Shown here: positions 106 through 11,282 of the stretch, one piece after another
Layout: each line of letters begins with the position of its first letter
Position numbering within the stretch: position 1 is the stretch's first letter
Source of the DNA: a virus
Taxonomy: Duplodnaviria > Heunggongvirae > Uroviricota > Caudoviricetes
Virus record (IMG/VR): IMGVR_UViG_2690316153_000018
DNA: 15,350 nt
Strand: one strand, 5' to 3'
Program-made: the position numbers and the translations under genes
Notes under the pieces: model-generated
Seen by the model: the letters and a program-made list of their open reading frames with translations, nothing else
What the model was told of the DNA's origin: nothing
Database searches by the model: none

Positions 106-1161
106 TCATGCTTTCCACTTCAGGACACCCGAATTTCTCGCGTGCATTAAAAAACGAATCAGCAACAACAGCTGGCTGCCGTGTTTTTCTTCAAAATCTT
201 TTACCCCGGCGTGCAGTTCGTTATGACATTTACGGCACAGCGGAATAACAAACAAATCATCAGCCTTTGTTCCCATCCCTCCCAGTCCATGACCAATGAT
301 GTGATGCGGATCATCTGCCTGATTACCGCACGTCATGCATTTCTGCGTTTTTACCCAGCGCGTGTATACAGGCATCTCTTCCCGTTGTGGTTTCTGGCGC
401 TGGAGATACTGAGCCGGTGACTCCGGATCAACGGCAATGCTGACCACCGTCTTTTCCTGTGGCGGGTTTTGCTGGTGGGCGTGAGGCAGCAGCGCAAGAT
501 TTTTTGTGCGCTGCTTCAGTATGCTGGTGGCGGTCTGCTCTCCCGGTACGATGTCGCTTTCGCGGTACACCGAGCGGATTTTTTCCGCACGCAATCCCAG
601 AGAACGACGTAATACTGCCTCCGGCAATACGTCCGCTACCTGATTGCAGACCGCCCACCAGGATAATTCAGCCAGCGATAACTCCCGCTCCTGTGTACCG
701 TTTATTGCGTGGCGGATGACGTCAATCATCCAGGATGTCAGGTTTTGTTGAGCAAGTTGCCCGAGTGATTCTGAAGTCTGGTCGCGTAACTGATTATCAC
801 AGTGCCAGCACAATACCATTGCGCCGGTACCGTAACGATGTATGACGGTTTCACTGTGGTGGTAGTCACCATGAGGCCACTGGCAGGATTTAACATGGCG
901 TAACAGCCAGTCAGACAATGCGCCAGCGCCGCCAGCAGCACGAATCACCCGCTCATCGCTGAAAAATGGCAGTAATGATTTATCTTCCGCGAGCGGCTGG
1001 CGCACGGCAGGAACAGTTCCTGACGGCAGACCGCGCATGCTTTTCGGTTCCGGCTCCACCAGCACCCGGGGATTATGAAATACCTGCATGGATTCACGGC
1101 CCGGCTTAAGGACCACCAGCCCGAGTTCCGGTACCAGAACAGGTCGAAGTAATACCCGCAC
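106..1161 (-). CDS. ydfU: DUF968 / YdfU-like phage protein with C-terminal HNH-like zinc-binding motif (nin-region protein)
   Basis: 351-codon ORF with GTG start at 1161 preceded by GGAGG at 4-nt spacing. C-terminus CMTCGNQADDPHHIIGHG...PLCRKCHNELH is a CxxC...H...CxxCH HNH/NinG-like motif. Matches my recollection of E. coli YdfU. Confidence 0.75.
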   Translation of the reverse strand: MRVLLRPVLVPELGLVVLKPGRESMQVFHNPRVLVEPEPKSMRGLPSGTVPAVRQPLAEDKSLLPFFSDERVIRAAGGAGALSDWLLRHVKSCQWPHGDYHHSETVIHRYGTGAMVLCWHCDNQLRDQTSESLGQLAQQNLTSWMIDVIRHAINGTQERELSLAELSWWAVCNQVADVLPEAVLRRSLGLRAEKIRSVYRESDIVPGEQTATSILKQRTKNLALLPHAHQQNPPQEKTVVSIAVDPESPAQYLQRQKPQREEMPVYTRWVKTQKCMTCGNQADDPHHIIGHGLGGMGTKADDLFVIPLCRKCHNELHAGVKDFEEKHGSQLLLLIRFLMHARNSGVLKWKA

Positions 1162-1162
1162 G

Positions 1163-1441
1163 TTACCTCCAGATACGCTGCTGGAATGTGCGGGACGGAC
1201 GCGGTGGGCGTTCAGAGTAAGGCAGTCTGACTGAGATTATCCAGTGTCGGAAGTCGAAGCTGAGGTCTTTCTGAAACTCGTAACCACGTCTGCGGTAGTT
1301 CTGAATTAGCCACTCTGCCTGCTCTTCAGTACATGGATCATGCTGGAACCAGTCAGATTTGAATGCATGAGAACGCCGCCCGTGCCTGCTGGCAAAGACG
1401 GCTGAATTATCAGAATTGTGTTGTCTGGAATTTTGCGCCAT
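1163..1441 (-). CDS. hypothetical phage protein (92 aa)
   Basis: ORF with ATG at 1441 and GGAG about 8 nt upstream; co-directional and tightly packed with neighbouring phage genes. No recognisable motif. Confidence 0.5.
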   Translation of the reverse strand: MAQNSRQHNSDNSAVFASRHGRRSHAFKSDWFQHDPCTEEQAEWLIQNYRRRGYEFQKDLSFDFRHWIISVRLPYSERPPRPSRTFQQRIWR

Positions 1442-1507
1442 CGGCTTTCTCCGGTGGCACAGTGTTACTCAACAGGGGTTCAGCCCTGCGCTGAATTGTA
1501 GATGAAT

Positions 1508-1816
1508 TCACTCATCTTCAAAAGCAGAAAAACCAGCCTTAATCCCAGCTTCTTTCAGAGACGGCAACGATGTGACAAATTCATTTGCACGCAAAATAAA
1601 ACCATCCGTCACAAGCCCATCCACCAAATGAATTAACGCAGCTCCACTCTTCCTTTGTTGAGACTGTAAACATTTAATACGGCAGTGGCTGACAATAGCG
1701 CCATTCTCAACGCGCACAGTATAGAGGCCATCCTCACTAAAAATTTCACGTAATTCTTCGATTTTCATCAACAGAATCCTTCCAGATAAATAGCACTCCC
1801 CCTGTTCGGGGTCCAT
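1508..1816 (-). CDS. hypothetical phage protein (102 aa; alternative start at 1768 giving 86 aa, MKIEELREIF...)
   Basis: ORF with ATG at 1816 (purine-rich GGGAGAAGAGGG upstream) and an in-frame ATG at 1768 (GGAAGGA upstream). No recognisable motif. Confidence 0.5.
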   Translation of the reverse strand: MDPEQGECYLSGRILLMKIEELREIFSEDGLYTVRVENGAIVSHCRIKCLQSQQRKSGAALIHLVDGLVTDGFILRANEFVTSLPSLKEAGIKAGFSAFEDE

Positions 1817-1898
1817 CCCTCTTCTCCCTGCGCGCTACTTAAGTATTTTTGATTCTATTCTGGCACCGTCCAAAACTTCAAACACGTTGAAAATAAAA

Positions 1899-1921
1899 AC
1901 AAAAAACCCGCCGAAGCGGGT
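1899..1921 (-). terminator. Rho-independent terminator for minus-strand transcription (stem CCCGC / loop CGAA / stem GCGGG, then a U-run on the minus strand)
   Basis: Plus strand reads aaaaaaaCCCGCcgaaGCGGGt, so the minus-strand transcript is a GC hairpin followed by 6-7 U. It lies 5 nt downstream of the stop of the 1926..3029 gene. Confidence 0.55.
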
Positions 1922-1925
1922 ATAC

Positions 1926-3029
1926 TCAAACAATCTGGAAAATATTTCTTGGATTTGTAATAGGTCTGTTGATGGAGAACAACTCACGAATTAAATCTTG
2001 GCTCAAGCCAGTTTTCATAAGAATTCTTAGCCAGGTTGCATCATCCAGCATTTCAATCGCCTCGGCCAGCATACCGGGTTCTTCAGGGCGCAAAAGTTCA
2101 TCACCAGGTTCAACTCTCGTATACCCTCTGGAATTAAGATGCATATAGCCAGTTCTTGCCTGTTCCTGGGTCAATAAGCCTAATGCGCTGGCTCGATAAA
2201 TACACATTTTAAGGCTGATTTTCCATCTAAGTTTAAATTCAACCAGAGCATTCCAGTCGAATTGCTTACCTCGTATTCGTGGAAATTCTTTAATGAAAGA
2301 TAACCTGGGAACTAATAAGGCGCTCGAAAAGTGATCGGCTTGTGATTCCGTAAGTTTATCACCTGTCGTTATGCCCTCATGCATTACTAAATGCCCTAAT
2401 TCATGACCTAAATCAGAGCGAAATCTACATATGCTTTTTTTAACATTGTTCCTGATGATAACAGGCCTGTTATTGTGAACAGTAAAAGCATCAACACGAT
2501 CATCGACTCCCGTAACATGCGCAACGATTACCCCTAAACTCTCCGCCAATTTAACCATTGATGATATAGGGCCAAGACCTAAATTCCAGGCACGGCGACA
2601 ATCTTCTGCCACTCGCTCAATATCATTCGGAGTAAGTAATTCAGCCCCTGGGTGCTCCGGTATGTTAACGTCAGGAAATTCGATTTCACCTTCAACAGCA
2701 GAAATTATAATATTAAGAATCTCAGCCCTGGCCAATACACTATTAGTCAGCGTTTGAGTCCTGGACTTCTTACTCCGAAAATGGCAGACATCACTTTCCA
2801 GAGCGTATTTTCGTTCAGTAAAAAGAAAACTGGACTTAATCATAAGCGCTGAAGATATTAACTCAAGACATTGCTCCGATGGCCTGCACCCCTTCTCCAG
2901 TTTGCTAACGAATTGCTTTGTCTTGCCAATTTTTTCGGCTAACTCTTCACAAGAAAGCCCAACAGCCATTCTCGCTAGTTTGAGCTTATCACCCCGATAC
3001 TCAGTGAAGTTATTCACCTGATGTTCCAT
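1926..3029 (-). CDS. Fusion protein: N-terminal XRE-family helix-turn-helix + C-terminal ImmA/IrrE-type (COG2856/DUF955-like) zinc metallopeptidase
   Basis: N-terminus LKLARMAVGLSCEELAEKIGKTKQFVSKLEKG is a typical XRE HTH. HExxH motif present in DLGHELGHLVMHEG. ORF track starts at GTG 3032; an ATG at 3029 is the likelier start. The 5' end overlaps the stop of the upstream gene by about 20 nt. Confidence 0.8.
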   Translation of the reverse strand: MEHQVNNFTEYRGDKLKLARMAVGLSCEELAEKIGKTKQFVSKLEKGCRPSEQCLELISSALMIKSSFLFTERKYALESDVCHFRSKKSRTQTLTNSVLARAEILNIIISAVEGEIEFPDVNIPEHPGAELLTPNDIERVAEDCRRAWNLGLGPISSMVKLAESLGVIVAHVTGVDDRVDAFTVHNNRPVIIRNNVKKSICRFRSDLGHELGHLVMHEGITTGDKLTESQADHFSSALLVPRLSFIKEFPRIRGKQFDWNALVEFKLRWKISLKMCIYRASALGLLTQEQARTGYMHLNSRGYTRVEPGDELLRPEEPGMLAEAIEMLDDATWLRILMKTGLSQDLIRELFSINRPITNPRNIFQIV

Positions 3030-3660
3030 CACTGCTCACATCCAAATCTTTATCCTTCGTACGCCGACGAAGAGGCACCTTATTAATCTCCGCTTCGTCA
3101 GGGAGTGTGTTATAATCAAGAGGCATAAGCGGCATCGATGCTGTAGATTGATGAGAAACTATACTAATCTGAGCACCATAAGTATTAAATCCAACAAGAG
3201 CTACCTCCCAACGAGGCAGTGTGGACTCTAATTCACCATCGCCCTCTTCGGATAAAAAAGGCTCAGCTATGACTCGCCATGTAATATCTTGCTCAGCCTC
3301 AACATCACCAAACAATGAGAGTTGCTCATACTCTACTTTATTTCGACGCAGACGATGTTTCTTTTTGGGGTTATTAATGCAATCTTTGGTAAATTGTAGC
3401 GGAACTTTATTTAAAGCAACTACATAGTCCAACCCCTTGGAAATCATCTCAAGGCCAGGAATTGCATCTTCATTTTGAATAAGATGATTTCTGACCCAAT
3501 CATAAGCCCTTACACCTTCAGACCAGTTGCTGTCTAATGCGTGCTTATGATAGTACAGCTGCTCAAGTACGTTAGCGATCTCCGCCAACAAGTGGCGAAC
3601 ATAGTTTTCAGCAAGATAAGGTTGAAATTCCCAACAAGGAGCTAACTGATTTTCATTCAT
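3010..3660 (-). CDS. hypothetical protein (216 aa), translationally coupled to the downstream HTH-peptidase gene
   Basis: ORF with ATG at 3660; its stop (3012..3010) overlaps the start of the HTH-ImmA gene. No motif I can assign. Confidence 0.7.
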   Translation of the reverse strand: MNENQLAPCWEFQPYLAENYVRHLLAEIANVLEQLYYHKHALDSNWSEGVRAYDWVRNHLIQNEDAIPGLEMISKGLDYVVALNKVPLQFTKDCINNPKKKHRLRRNKVEYEQLSLFGDVEAEQDITWRVIAEPFLSEEGDGELESTLPRWEVALVGFNTYGAQISIVSHQSTASMPLMPLDYNTLPDEAEINKVPLRRRTKDKDLDVSSDGTSGE

Positions 3661-3695
3661 TTCAAGTTTCGCTTTTTTTAGAATTCGTAAACCAC

Positions 3696-3724
3696 ATATT
3701 TTCGCATTTTTCTATTTTTGTCAA
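3696..3724 (-). promoter_or_regulatory. Candidate sigma70 promoter for the 3660..1926 cassette (minus strand)
   Basis: Minus strand has a perfect TTGACA (plus coords 3724..3719), a 17-nt spacer, then a weak -10 AAATAT (3701..3696), about 35 nt upstream of the ATG at 3660. Judged by eye only. Confidence 0.3.
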
Positions 3725-3736
3725 CCAGACTAATGC

Positions 3737-3756
3737 AAAAACCCGCCGAAGCGGGT
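3737..3756 (-). terminator. Rho-independent terminator-like hairpin (minus strand), identical in sequence to the one at 1902..1921
   Basis: Plus strand aaaaaCCCGCcgaaGCGGGt; the minus-strand transcript is the same hairpin followed by UUUUU. It lies about 70 nt downstream of the hokD stop. Confidence 0.45.
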
Positions 3757-3825
3757 TAAGTGCGGGTGCGTTGAGGATGCCTGGCACATCAGAGGTGGCG
3801 GGAGATTACTCCCCCGCCGGGTCTC

Positions 3826-3981
3826 TTACTCCTCAGGTTCGTAAGCTGTGAAGACAGCGACCTCCGTCTGGCCGGTTCGGATTCGTACCTCGCAGAGGTC
3901 TTTCCTCGTTACCAGTGCCGTCACTATGACGGTTAAACAGATGACGATCAGGGCGATTAACATCGCCTTTTGCTGCTTCAT
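3826..3981 (-). CDS. hokD: Hok/Gef-family small membrane toxin (51 aa from the internal ATG; the ORF track extends to 4038)
   Basis: Translation MKQQKAMLIALIVICLTVIVTALVTRKDLCEVRIRTGQTEVAVFTAYEPEE has a single TM helix and the conserved C-terminal Cys/Arg/Tyr-Glu pattern of Hok-family toxins. Matches my recollection of E. coli HokD (RelF). Confidence 0.8.
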   Translation of the reverse strand: MKQQKAMLIALIVICLTVIVTALVTRKDLCEVRIRTGQTEVAVFTAYEPEE

Positions 3982-4660
3982 AGCCTGCTTCTCCTTGCCT
4001 TTCGGCACGTAAGAGGCTAACCTACGTGTGTAGAGCATAGATATGGCCTCAGATTAATGTTAAGCGTCTTGCCGGACGCGTAATGTTAACTGGGGCTTTT
4101 CTCTATCTGCCTTTGGTGTTGATGCCCGAGGCAGATAGCCTCAAGCACCCGCAGCAATTCTACTTAACTACCGTTACCTCGCCAATATGAAATCAATCAG
4201 AAAGGTGATCCATAAGAACAACAGCAAGACAATAAATTGCCATTACAGCAGCAATAGCCAGCGCACATTTGAGAACCAGCACCACAACCTCCTGTATTGG
4301 ACGTACACCAGTCCTGATAAATATGAGGCTGTCTCGTCAGTGATTCAATACAACTACTGGGTATAGTTTCTATGATTTTGTTCTGTGGAAATGGAAAACA
4401 GCAACCAGTCACCACCAGCACTTCTTTAAACATGCCAAGTCACACGCAAGCCAACATTATAGTTCCCTTTGAGCGAGCAGATGAAGCTAGCAAAAATATT
4501 GATCACTTAGGATGCATTACTAACGTTGCTATGTGTTAACGAACAGGGAGTGGGTCATCAGCATAAATATTTATGCAGTAGGTTTCTTTTAGGACTAGAT
4601 TAATCAAAAACATTTAGATAAAATTATAAAATCAAGAAATTGGTGGCAATTAATCTTTAA

Positions 4661-4689: not shown

Positions 4690-4724
4690 AGATTAGCTTT
4701 TTTTTTGAGTGTTTGGAGAGTAAA

Positions 4725-5420
4725 ATGTTAGAACCACCAAAGAGTTATAATGAAATGTTGCCTATGCTCCATAAGGCGACTTTTATTACTACATTTATAT
4801 TTTACCTATCATTAGTCATTTATGGCTACATGCCATTGGTTGGCATTAATGCCAAGTATATCCCCCCCGTTAAAGACTACGAGGAATTTATTAAATGGAT
4901 ATTAACCTTTGGCATATTACCAATTGCATCTTCAGTTTTTTGGTCAGTAATTAGTGGAGCTTTAGATCTACATAATAATGTAGCAAAAATTATTGGAATA
5001 AGGAAGATGTGGGATAGTCATTTAATTATTAAACCATTAGCAAAAATTGCAGGCGTTACGAGAAAATTAACTACTGATGAATCTCACAAGGTAATGAGTA
5101 AACTGTATTACCCAGAAGTTAAAGAGTTAAAAGACAAACATTACGTTGAACTTTTCTGGAACAAAGTTTATTACTTTTGGGTTTTCTTTGAACATACAGT
5201 AATCGCATTTGTTACTATTTTAATAATAAGTATCGCCAAATTAACAAATATATTCTCTGTTACTGGCTCTTTAATTAATCTTTGGTTGTGGATTATTTCT
5301 CTTGTCGCATTTGACTTCCTTATTTTCATAGCATCAGTTAAACCAAGAACAGAAAGCCAAGTAAGACAAATACCTGATAGCAAAATAAAAGAATTCTTTA
5401 ACAATAACAATATTTTTTAA
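4725..5420 (+). CDS. Integral membrane protein with four predicted TM helices (2 TM + ~65-aa loop + 2 TM), function unknown
   Basis: ATG at 4725 preceded by GGAGAG at about 5-nt spacing (the ORF track starts at TTG 4713). Four hydrophobic stretches: ATFITTFIFYLSLVIYGYMPLVGI, FIKWILTFGILPIASSVFWSVISGAL, VYYFWVFFEHTVIAFVTILIISIA, TGSLINLWLWIISLVAFDFLIFIASV. Codon usage is strongly AT-rich. Confidence 0.8.
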   Translation: MLEPPKSYNEMLPMLHKATFITTFIFYLSLVIYGYMPLVGINAKYIPPVKDYEEFIKWILTFGILPIASSVFWSVISGALDLHNNVAKIIGIRKMWDSHLIIKPLAKIAGVTRKLTTDESHKVMSKLYYPEVKELKDKHYVELFWNKVYYFWVFFEHTVIAFVTILIISIAKLTNIFSVTGSLINLWLWIISLVAFDFLIFIASVKPRTESQVRQIPDSKIKEFFNNNNIF

Positions 5421-5426
5421 ACGAGG

Positions 5427-6086
5427 TTGATTTTGAATTACAAAATAAATGGAATAAACATACGTTCAGAAAATGCAGCGAAACCGCACACTATGCCATC
5501 TAACTATCTCTGTAAACAGATTGAAAGCACTAATAAAAATGGCAATGCCCTTGATTTTGGATGTGGAAAACTTAGATATTCAGAACAATTAGTAAATAAA
5601 TTTGAAACTGTGACATTTTTAGATTCCAGAAGACAACTAGAAAGAGTGCAAATTATCAGAGGTGTACAAACCACGATTCCAGATTACGTGATAAATAACT
5701 ATAAGAATGCTAATATTGTTTCTTATGAAAATATAGATAAAATAACAAATCATTATGATTTCATACTTTGCGCAAACGTGCTTTCCGCAATTCCATGTGA
5801 ATCCACAATTCACAAAGTCCTCAGTGCGATTAGAGAATTATTAAAGAGTGATGGTGAAGCACTGATTGTCAATCAATACAAAAGTTCTTATTTCAAGAGG
5901 TACGAGAGCGGTATTAAACATTTGCATGGGTATATATACCAAAACTCTCGCAATGCTTTCTACTATGGTTTATTAGATGTGGATACTGTAAGTAAAATAT
6001 GCTCAGATAATAATTTAGAAATAATAAAATCATGGAGCAAAGCAGGTAGTTCATATGTGGTTGTTGGTAAACATATACATATTTAG
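5427..6086 (+). CDS. Small class-I SAM-dependent methyltransferase-fold protein (about 217-219 aa), substrate unknown
   Basis: Motif I ALDFGCGKL, acidic residue ending beta-2 (TVTFLDS) and a motif-IV-like YDFILCANVLSAIP. Start is TTG at 5427 or 5433; GAGG at 5423..5426 gives good spacing to 5433. The first in-frame ATG is at 5493. Lies 6-12 nt after the stop of the membrane-protein gene. Confidence 0.7.
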   Translation: MILNYKINGINIRSENAAKPHTMPSNYLCKQIESTNKNGNALDFGCGKLRYSEQLVNKFETVTFLDSRRQLERVQIIRGVQTTIPDYVINNYKNANIVSYENIDKITNHYDFILCANVLSAIPCESTIHKVLSAIRELLKSDGEALIVNQYKSSYFKRYESGIKHLHGYIYQNSRNAFYYGLLDVDTVSKICSDNNLEIIKSWSKAGSSYVVVGKHIHI

Positions 6087-6400
6087 TTTATTTCAACAAA
6101 TTATTAGAAAGAGTGATTTGCTTGTTAATTATTAGCTCGGCAGTGCCGGATCAACATGACCCTGCCACTTAGGCCATTGCCGGTTTACCTACTTTTGTAA
6201 GGTTCAGCATGAAGTTTTTATATACTCTTCCTAATATCAATAGTGATGCTCGCTTATGTTAGCTGCTTCTTGTACATAGTAGCCTTCTCCGACAGTACTG
6301 CAATGAGCGGAGAGTAAAAGTCGATAAACAATAAGGAGGTTCACAATAAATATTTCTCGGTGAAACTTTCAAAGCATTCTCTGTTTTGCTAAATCGACAA

Positions 6401-7300
6401 TTATAAATCAACAACATTTAGTGTTATATCAATATTATTTAGCCTTGCAATCTCTGATGAATCACTTGCTATTTTAGCTTTTAATTTATCAATATTAATC
6501 ATATCTTCATGGCTTATATAAACCATATCACCTTGGTTAACTTTAGATTTGTTCACTATGGCTTGAATAACAGACAAATCATCCATTACACCTCTCATAA
6601 ATTTCACCATGCTTTGATCTTTGAAGTCAGATATCGATTTTGAACGTTGCTTACGTTGAATTGTTCCTTTTGTAATTACTTCATTAATTTCTTTTAAACC
6701 AGTGAGCATATCAGACAGACTGCCTTCGCAACTCATCCGATGTTTTATTGCATTGCGATTAATAATATTGAGTATAATTTCGAGTGAATCTTTATCACTC
6801 CATGGATGTAATGATGTATAATCATGATGACGTCGAATGGCGTCAATCATATCCTGGACCATATCTTCATCTGCTTTATCGCAAAGTTCATTCACGAAAT
6901 AGCTGGGGTCGATTATTTTACAATAACTTGGAGTTAGGTATCTTGAGGCTTTACAAAAACCAAAAATATATAAAGTAGAGTATTTATCTTTCAGACTCTC
7001 TCCTATTTCATTTATTTTCTCAAAAGATTCGATAGTTTTTTTAATTTTTGCTGGACTTGCATTCGTAGTAACTTGAACTGCTATCATGTTTTTATTATCA
7101 GCTAAATCAATGGCGGGAAAATTAACTTTAATCTGATTCATGTTTACCAGCTCACCCATTTTCAGCGCGCGAAACATAAAGATGGTCAATGACTCAATTA
7201 TTCTTTCCATGTCATGAAAGCCTGCCTGTTTGCGTTGCGCGATATAAAGCTGGAGTAGTGCAATATCACTCTGTAAGTTTCTAATAAGTGGATCAATCAT
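6401..7300 (-). CDS. hypothetical protein (299 aa); N-terminal region resembles, from memory, a SMEK-type domain
   Basis: ORF with ATG at 7300 and AAGGA about 9 nt upstream. N-terminal HDMERIIESL and NFPAIDLADNKNMIAVQVTTNASPAKIKKTIESF resemble the signature I associate with SMEK-domain proteins; not verified by HMM. AT-rich codon usage; convergent with the 4725..6086 operon. Confidence 0.75.
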   Translation of the reverse strand: MIDPLIRNLQSDIALLQLYIAQRKQAGFHDMERIIESLTIFMFRALKMGELVNMNQIKVNFPAIDLADNKNMIAVQVTTNASPAKIKKTIESFEKINEIGESLKDKYSTLYIFGFCKASRYLTPSYCKIIDPSYFVNELCDKADEDMVQDMIDAIRRHHDYTSLHPWSDKDSLEIILNIINRNAIKHRMSCEGSLSDMLTGLKEINEVITKGTIQRKQRSKSISDFKDQSMVKFMRGVMDDLSVIQAIVNKSKVNQGDMVYISHEDMINIDKLKAKIASDSSEIARLNNIDITLNVVDL

Positions 7301-11229: not shown

Positions 11230-11282
11230 TTTCTGGTGACGTTTGGCGGTATCAGTTTTACTCCGTGACTGCTCTGCCGCCC
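11230..11282 (+). ncRNA. dicF: DicF small regulatory RNA (53 nt), an Hfq-dependent ftsZ-targeting sRNA processed from the dicB-operon transcript
   Basis: Sequence TTTCTGGTGACGTTTGGCGGTATCAGTTTTACTCCGTGACTGCTCTGCCGCCC followed by TTTTT matches DicF as I remember it, in the expected position between ydfC and dicB after a roughly 340-nt untranslated leader. Confidence 0.7.

Follow-up and report, generated by a model that had tools for sequence, protein, structure and literature searches.

A hok terminator that frames alternative cassettes and looks like a joint in Qin-like lambdoid prophages

Promoter-early stem-loop (PeSL) cassettes of the T4-type phages RB49 and phi1 are known to recombine, form mini-circles and shuffle open reading frames (ORFs) (Arbiol et al. 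2010; PMC2839356). These are the closest described system to the locus reported here, which lies in a 15,350-nt stretch of DNA from a Caudoviricetes virus (IMG/VR record IMGVR_UViG_2690316153_000018; the whole stretch is called the window) and consists of a two-gene cassette beside the toxin gene hokD, with the same terminator hairpin at both ends of the cassette. The likeness is that in the PeSL phages repeated terminator stem-loop elements flank non-essential ORFs in a hyperplastic region to which insertions, deletions and replacements map, that the terminator insulates the inserted unit, and that the vehicle proposed is recombination from one copy to another, circular intermediates included (PMC2839356); at our locus the same stem-loop element stands on both sides of variable ORFs, in six cassette types. 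Other precedents share part of this picture. In the moron model (Hendrix/Juhala 2000), as far as its summaries in PMC2839356 and PMC3594210 go, the unit enters by illegitimate recombination of an undefined kind, and its regulatory sequences do not serve as the vehicle; on the same summaries, our cassette has in common with morons an autonomous unit with a candidate promoter and a terminator of its own, variable presence and predicted expression from the prophage. The 'linker' model of Botstein and Campbell likewise has short conserved boundary sequences that guide exchange and preserve regulation. Defence hotspots of P2-like phages and P4-like satellites resemble our slot in that a fixed prophage position holds alternative anti-phage systems according to the strain (Rousset et al. 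2022; PMC9122126). We found no description of a slot at the hokD terminator in the literature searched, which is not proof of absence.

The 20-mer AAAAACCCGCCGAAGCGGGT occurs in two exact copies in the window, at 1902-1921 and 3737-3756, with no further site in the 15,350 nt even when 3 mismatches were allowed, and it was recovered in 0 of 200 dinucleotide shuffles. We call the hairpin T, for the hok terminator, and its copies T_R (3737-3756) and T_L (1902-1921). Identity between the copies is confined to these 20 nt, which are bordered by c-a and a at the first copy and by g-c and t at the second. On the minus strand, which also carries all the genes around the two copies, each reads ACCCGC-UUCG-GCGGGU followed by 5-6 U. 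A terminator scan calls both copies on this strand (stem of 6-7 bp with 5 G-C pairs, UUCG loop; U-tails UUUUUUGUUUU and UUUUUGCAUU). The predicted folding energies are -10.9 and, for T_R, -15.1 kcal/mol. On the plus strand neither hairpin is followed by a T-run, so the hairpin is predicted to be unidirectional. With a G+C-rich stem-loop, a U-run and a co-directional gene upstream, both copies have the sequence features of intrinsic (Rho-independent) terminators. An earlier reading, made from the sequence alone, had reported this exact repeat as a minus-strand GC stem-loop with a U-run and had assigned one copy to the end of hokD and the other to the end of the cassette. The repeat and its fold hold, and the positions fit the two roles: T_R lies ~70 nt downstream of the hokD coding sequence (CDS), and the T_L hairpin 4-5 nt past the stop codon of the last cassette gene, rmrA (1926-1928; hairpin end 1921).

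The sequence-only reading had further predicted that cassette-less relatives would carry a single terminator, and had named such relatives with two copies as what would overturn it. The prediction was borne out. K-12 Qin (between rem and hokD), EH01-18-02, E2 and C7 each carry one copy of T, bordered on its left as window copy 1 is and on its right as window copy 2 is, and no empty site with two copies was seen among the relatives compared. The slot itself is very common: the window flanks are present in 4,768 of 5,426 complete E. coli genomes, the cassette alone in 237, each match spanning essentially its full length, and the full 3-kb stretch of cassette plus flanks (window 1400-4400) in 226.

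The window cassette, previously described as an HTH-peptidase cassette, is a RosmerTA system, a predicted anti-phage defence, since its two proteins match the RmrT and RmrA profiles of PADLOC. It is one of several alternative occupants. In RM8082, a Fic/Doc-family toxin gene with a small upstream ORF lies in the same slot between two copies of T. A scan of IMG/VR with the hokD-side flank yielded at least 120 loci. Among the matches listed, 52 are in a basal state with T 97 nt from a 92-aa gene (hyp92), 34 are in a state with rem, 18 carry a cassette between two T copies and 16 have other left flanks; neither arrays of two cassettes nor tandem arrays were among them. Six cassette types were found in the slot, each between two T copies and all co-directional with hokD: RosA, which is RosmerTA as in the window; RosB and RosB2, two further RosmerTA subtypes with RmrA 32-47% identical to that of the window and no DNA similarity; a split module of a helix-turn-helix (HTH) protein and an M78 peptidase, with a small Cys-rich ORF; the Doc cassette, a Phd/Doc-like pair; and c671, with a gene for a 130-aa lipoprotein. 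The junctions are uniform in all framed cassettes, GCGGGT abutting the cassette on one side and the cassette abutting the A-run on the other. The Doc cassette is found with T_R and hok in 120 E. coli genomes and RosB in 23, and in thousands of the remaining E. coli genomes homology to occupied loci starts exactly at the A-run of T_R. A scan of genome contigs with the hokD-side flank gave 10 loci and no new cassette types, all from Escherichia/Shigella except for three metagenome-assembled genomes (MAGs) and one Pseudomonadota MAG match without the hairpin. A blastn-short search for shared cassette edges found nothing beyond related cassettes.

To compare empty and occupied states, we joined the flanks of occupied loci at T and matched these virtual empty sites by junction-spanning BLAST. 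The virtual site derived from the window matches C7 and eleven other genomes over an uninterrupted 1,164 nt (97.2%). Likewise, a virtual empty RosA locus (L011) matches the real empty locus L065 at 98.65% over 1259 nt, unbroken across the junction, and single alignments span the junction for c671 (L125 versus L063, 98.9%) and for Doc (L126 versus L099, 96.9%). We consider it solid that there is one slot, with a single T when empty, two when occupied, and alternative cassettes between them.

T is also tied to this slot within the prophage family. In 1.24 Mb from 120 related prophage loci among the matches listed, 124 of 124 exact hairpins lie either beside hokD or at the cassette end remote from it, and the ~60 other CCCGC...GCGGG hairpins in the same sequence all have different loops. 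The hairpin is slot-specific inside this family. We used this family-specific count in place of the shuffles, whose null is too generous because the 18-mer AAACCCGCCGAAGCGGGT is ubiquitous among phages. Two other readings were rejected: rem is not itself a T-framed cassette, since it replaces 22 nt of the no-rem flank and a second T is absent, and T_L is not the remnant of a second hok locus, hok 3' sequence being absent after it. So-called far copies in L055 and L071 proved to be a different hairpin near tRNA genes.

The hokD side of the slot has the features of a type I toxin-antitoxin module, with a Hok-family toxin, a sok region and a predicted mRNA fold-back. In the predicted fold of the 424-nt hok mRNA (3737-4160, minus strand; z=-7.9), the 5' and 3' ends show the classic long-range fold-back, UGCGGGUGCUUGAGG with CCUCAACGCACCCGCA. 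The 5' element is UGCGGGUGC (4153-4145), and its 3' partner GCACCCGCA (3769-3761) stands just upstream of T_R, whose hairpin begins 3 nt beyond the predicted hok tac-fbi helix. The model thereby makes T_R part of the hok mRNA 3' architecture, with a constrained position. In K-12, co-transcription of relBE and hokD has been reported (PMC5120126), and this transcript presumably also ends at T, an end point that we place by inference; the literature searched on the hokD terminator yielded no mapped transcript ends. Match boundaries in other phages vary: hok/sok matches start at query position 1 or 2 in phages Evi, vB_EcoS-689R5 and Rac, and at position 18, inside the hairpin 3' arm, in Stx-converting phages (e.g. 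VT2-Sakai AP000422.1, hokW), whose hokW loci seem, from these alignments, to end in a different terminator. In one locus, L094, a 24-27-nt insert CTGAGGGATCCCCATAAATCAGCG ~60 nt left of the hokD flank splits the hokD terminator hairpin; it has its own inverted repeat with a BamHI site inside and may be an engineering scar or a small insertion.

Our preferred explanation, to which we give a probability of roughly 0.6, is that in Qin-like lambdoid prophages T is the native terminator of the hok/sok transcript and that cassettes enter by recombination at T, duplicating it. T lies between the replication genes and Q. The unoccupied order is hokD, T and backbone (hyp92, DUF968, rusA and Q, with rem first in some lineages), and the occupied order hokD, T_R, promoter, rmrT, rmrA, T_L and backbone, the RosmerTA unit directly following the U-run of T. 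Lambdoid gene order places DUF968, rusA and Q downstream, and in relatives of the window (L002, L004, L005, L372) rusA and the Q antiterminator do lie downstream of the DUF968 gene. Judging from position and sequence, T_R would keep intact the hok mRNA 3' end required for fold-back control of hok, and T_L would keep transcription from the cassette promoter out of the genes that follow and out of Q. Any unit that is placed ahead of DUF968-rusA-Q in the same orientation, with a promoter active in the lysogen, would need a terminator, and T_L would supply one.

The duplication would then be the footprint of recombination at T, with a donor unit whose 3' end carries or gains a terminator resembling T. 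The Rosmer cassettes also share a short stretch at the promoter edge, CTGGTTNACAA, with the backbone sequence that follows T. RosA and RosB2 have nearly the same upstream edge, GCAUnnnUCUGGUUGACAAA, despite ~32% identity between their RmrA proteins, a saturated coding divergence. Both edges are similar to the backbone sequence directly behind T (GCAUU-CUGGUUUACAAUUC), with a shuffle p of <0.0005 for RosA and 0.004 for RosB2; for RosB it is 0.066. Because the cassette runs from promoter to terminator and the target from terminator to promoter-like motif, the order of homologies is reversed, which predicts ends-in or circle-type (Campbell-like) integration, or unequal crossover; each of these would leave T on both sides. 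Once framed, a cassette could be lost through recombination between the two T copies, reach other backbones through T_L, spread when ordinary homologous recombination takes place in its flanks (hokD and backbone), or have its content swapped inside the frame.

Comparison of backbones is consistent with such a role. The Doc cassette is joined via T_L to at least 4 mutually non-alignable backbones, two of which are also found as empty sites with the same flank. RosA is present on the rem backbone in the window and on a no-rem backbone in L006 (94% identity), where each T copy has one substitution. The single out-of-slot homologue of the window cassette that we fetched, L007, is 80% identical and lies in an unrelated prophage region with the same promoter edge. 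Its terminator has the CCCGC/GCGGG stem with an AUAUA-type loop, 17 nt past the stop codon as against 4-5 nt in the window; T_L is thus not an inherited part of the cassette core. The sequence-only reading had offered recombination within or next to the terminator, or terminators as portable joints, as alternatives. The first finds support in the single-copy empty sites with both outer flanks, at the level of an inferred mechanism, and the second in the six cassette types between two copies and in the Doc junctions.

Several points weigh against entry at T. T is a globally common terminator and U-runs are of low complexity, so that continuity of the flanks alone is no proof against import of T_L. 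For Doc, c1354 and c671, the shuffle test showed no promoter-edge homology to the backbone. Circle or tandem junctions (right edge, T, left edge) were absent from IMG/VR for RosA and Doc, although assemblies are a weak test of such junctions. Twenty nucleotides are short for RecA-dependent recombination, so that either a phage recombinase or a rare event has to be invoked. Not every insert at this place has T at both ends: rem and several other small ones lack the frame. The c671 cassette (L048:3637-3770; also L073, L096, L102 and L125) retains beside T_L ~130 nt of a diverged RosA-type rmrA 3' end (local score 44 versus 11.5±1.9, 0 of 1000 shuffles); c671 thus arose by replacement inside an existing frame, with no new T-duplicating insertion. 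Finally, the window and C7 (L372) are 99.7% identical over 3.67 kb right of T and 87% identical left of it, with seven mismatches in the first 100 nt right of T (window 3757-3856) and essential identity over the next ~3.5 kb. This pattern suggests a recombination breakpoint inside the hok 3' region, ~100 nt from T and outside it, so that spread can use ordinary flank recombination for which T is not needed.

The last two observations also feed an account in which T is passive: one or a few ancient duplications would have made the T-T frame, its content would later have been replaced and its flanks recombined, and T would be a landmark kept by selection for the hok 3' end and for insulation of Q. 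The shared T_L flank variant of RosB and RosB2 and the constraint that the hok mRNA model puts on T_R fit this account too. We nevertheless consider it unlikely: the edges of Doc, c1354, RosB and RosB2 showed no trace of a previous cassette, the backbones to which Doc is attached via T_L have T alone in common, and near-isogenic empty and occupied pairs exist for three cassette types. Weighing these, we favour short-homology recombination at T, with replacement inside the frame and flank recombination also contributing. A stronger version of recombination at T is doubtful. In it, T and a few following bases would be an active, integrase-independent joint at which lambdoid prophages capture, lose and swap whole defence operons by short homology or small circles, much as has been suggested for PeSLs; and since the 18-mer ranks among the commonest terminators of unrelated phages, T could be a near-universal linker between phage lineages.

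Quite improbable, in our view, is convergence, in which each cassette arrived as a moron of the classical kind whose own terminator happens to be the very common and thermodynamically optimal C(UUCG)G hairpin that also serves hokD, nothing is duplicated and the terminator has no role in recombination. In two IMG/VR scans of at least 120 loci each, from which loci with the hokD flank were left out, the 18-mer was found with unrelated flanks in at least 240 unrelated viral contigs of 30-67% GC, as a ubiquitous phage terminator that is common and presumably convergent. The L007 terminator shares the CCCGC/GCGGG stem, and an insertion directly after the U-run that brought its own T would look alike, U-runs being of low complexity. 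Set against this, none of the ~60 other CCCGC-stem hairpins in the 1.24 Mb has the CGAA loop, yet the slot cassettes of all six types end in the exact CGAA-loop hairpin or one that is one base off; the L007 terminator has another loop and stands farther from the stop codon; and orientation and the GCGGGT-cassette junction are uniform. Elsewhere, T keeps company of its own: 76 of 237 occurrences in unrelated viral contigs (L128-L361) have GGAG-N4-10-ATG within 45 nt, and 36 of these have a conserved UUAUUGCCYGGAG motif directly after the U-run. From these sequences, T plus a ribosome-binding site (RBS) looks like a recurrent intergenic unit in other phage groups.

Insertion directed by an enzyme, that is, by a site- or structure-specific recombinase recognising the T hairpin (integron-like, HUH/Y1, or a resolvase such as RusA) and leaving the repeat as attachment site or target duplication, would account for identical hairpins on both sides, fixed orientation and sharp junctions, and rusA lies a few genes downstream in relatives, but we judge it highly improbable, as the cassettes lack integrase, transposase and inverted repeats and carry only defence or toxin-antitoxin genes, the 6-bp stem with its 4-nt loop is far below attC size, the duplicated segment varies by cassette from ~19 to ~45 nt, and the matches listed hold no tandem arrays.

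The features of the window around the slot are collected in Table 1. The RefSeq start of rmrA in the identical locus L005 is at 3029, and rmrT overlaps the rmrA start by ~20 nt. RmrA has an N-terminal HTH and an M78/IrrE-type zinc-peptidase domain; no Pfam family matched RmrT. The candidate cassette promoter has a perfect -35 TTGACA (3724-3719), a 17-nt spacer and a weak -10 AAATAT, and a consensus promoter scan of the window made no call at 3681-3736. The 9-nt GCAUUAGUC (3736-3728) joins this promoter edge to T_R. Within the edge, two direct operator-like repeats, TGGTTGACA (3727-3719) and TGGTTTACGAATTC (3694-3681), are conserved in RosB, RosB2 and the out-of-slot homologue L007. A motif much like them, CTGGTTTACAATTC, occurs in the no-rem backbone just after T (L009, L013, L016, L006), whether a cassette is present or not. 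RmrA might bind these repeats, with their TGGTTNAC motif, including the backbone copy after T_L. Beyond its placement, which alone is of interest, we found nothing unusual in the RosmerTA system itself.

Table 1. Features in and around the hokD-terminator slot of the window, in order of position.
Feature	Position	Strand	Evidence and remarks
DUF968/HNH gene	106-1161	-	Pfam DUF968
hyp92, 92-aa gene	1163-1441	-	annotation in relatives
rem-like small gene	1508-1816	-	RefSeq 1508-1768; part of 'class A' backbone flank left of the slot
T_L, cassette-distal terminator	1902-1921	-	exact match, terminator scan, fold; UUUUUUGUUUUU comes next
rmrA, RosmerTA antitoxin-like, 368 aa	1926-3032	-	Pfam HTH_3 (5e-07), Peptidase_M78 (6e-11); PADLOC RmrA E=6e-105
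rmrT, RosmerTA toxin-like, 216 aa	3010-3660	-	PADLOC RmrT E=4.6e-25
cassette promoter/operator edge, candidate	3681-3736	-	read from sequence
T_R, hokD-proximal terminator	3737-3756	-	exact match, terminator scan, fold -15.1 kcal/mol; five U
hokD, type I toxin	3826-3981	-	Pfam HOK_GEF 2.9e-23; RefSeq hokD in identical locus L005
mok-like frame, 70-aa ORF overlapping hokD	3826-4038	-	reading frame
hok mRNA 5' region and sok antisense region	3976-4150	-	Rfam RF01794 sok, 114 bits

Beyond the slot, the neighbours of hokD on its right differ by strain, with relBE in K-12, paa in E2, an ORF6N gene in RM8082 and a chaperonin gene in STEC346; hokD and T thus form a small conserved island in a variable region. 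In the window, the other side of hok (4713-7300) encodes a 235-aa protein without a family match, a class I SAM-dependent methyltransferase and a SMEK-domain protein with a PADLOC match (1.4e-20) to an Argonaute-associated N-terminal domain. The UTME-9 locus L005, otherwise 100% identical to the window, has beside hokD a 1.1-kb insertion (L005:5654-6742; window ~4050-4060) that is absent from the window; it encodes an 'integrase core domain' protein and is an insertion sequence (IS) element. A DicF antisense RNA lies at 11231-11282 on the plus strand (Rfam RF00039, 76.7 bits); with the gene order, it shows the prophage to be lambdoid and Qin-like. RosA further occurs, at full length and 99.8% identity, on two large non-mobilizable E. 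coli plasmids, H81 (CP088590.1) and H82 (NZ_AP026904.1), and it had no match among the sequenced phages of INPHARED.

Against the described systems, the locus has features of its own. PeSL elements occur in ~50 dispersed copies, as opposed to one resident terminator duplicated at a single slot of a temperate lambdoid prophage; their cargo is single ORFans, as opposed to defence or toxin-antitoxin operons; and here a promoter part is seen only with the Rosmer cassettes, and mini-circle junctions were not found. The cassette behaves as a moron in being present or absent in collinear relatives and in having a terminator downstream of it, T_L. Unlike the moron of the summaries cited above, that terminator is a copy of the resident one and the same frame is reused by several cassettes. 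The linker of Botstein and Campbell would here be a 20-nt functional terminator at one slot, its crossover role drawn from junction comparisons only. Integron cassettes, too, are promoter-proximal, each with a hairpin element after it, and are exchangeable at one site. Integron attC sites are imperfect, 57-141 bp long and associated with the IntI integrase. Our cassettes differ in having a 14-nt perfect terminator hairpin, a candidate promoter of their own and no integrase, and no arrays were seen; no integrase domain was found among the subset of window ORFs scanned. Nor is the window cassette a transposable element, as it contains only rmrT and rmrA, with no inverted-repeat ends seen at its junctions. 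The P2 and P4 hotspots are defined by conserved flanking core genes (PMC9122126); the slot described here lies in a lambdoid early region upstream of Q and is framed by terminator direct repeats. As for RosmerTA in PADLOC-DB, both window genes match its profiles, and RmrA has its HTH and M78 architecture.

The entry of morons and defence cassettes into phage genomes is still described as 'illegitimate recombination', and we have here a concrete case that is very common and easy to manipulate. E. coli K-12 itself has the empty slot, in Qin between hokD and rem. With several cassettes that alternate at the slot, and with occupied loci for which an empty counterpart exists, the linker idea becomes testable. 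A practical rule for finding new accessory and defence genes follows, which is to search between two copies of the hokD terminator. Even if T were only a passive frame, the locus would still be a tidy example of why operons inserted into a prophage need insulation, with the hok mRNA 3' end on one side and Q downstream on the other. We conclude that this is a lambdoid case in which a terminator does look like a joint.

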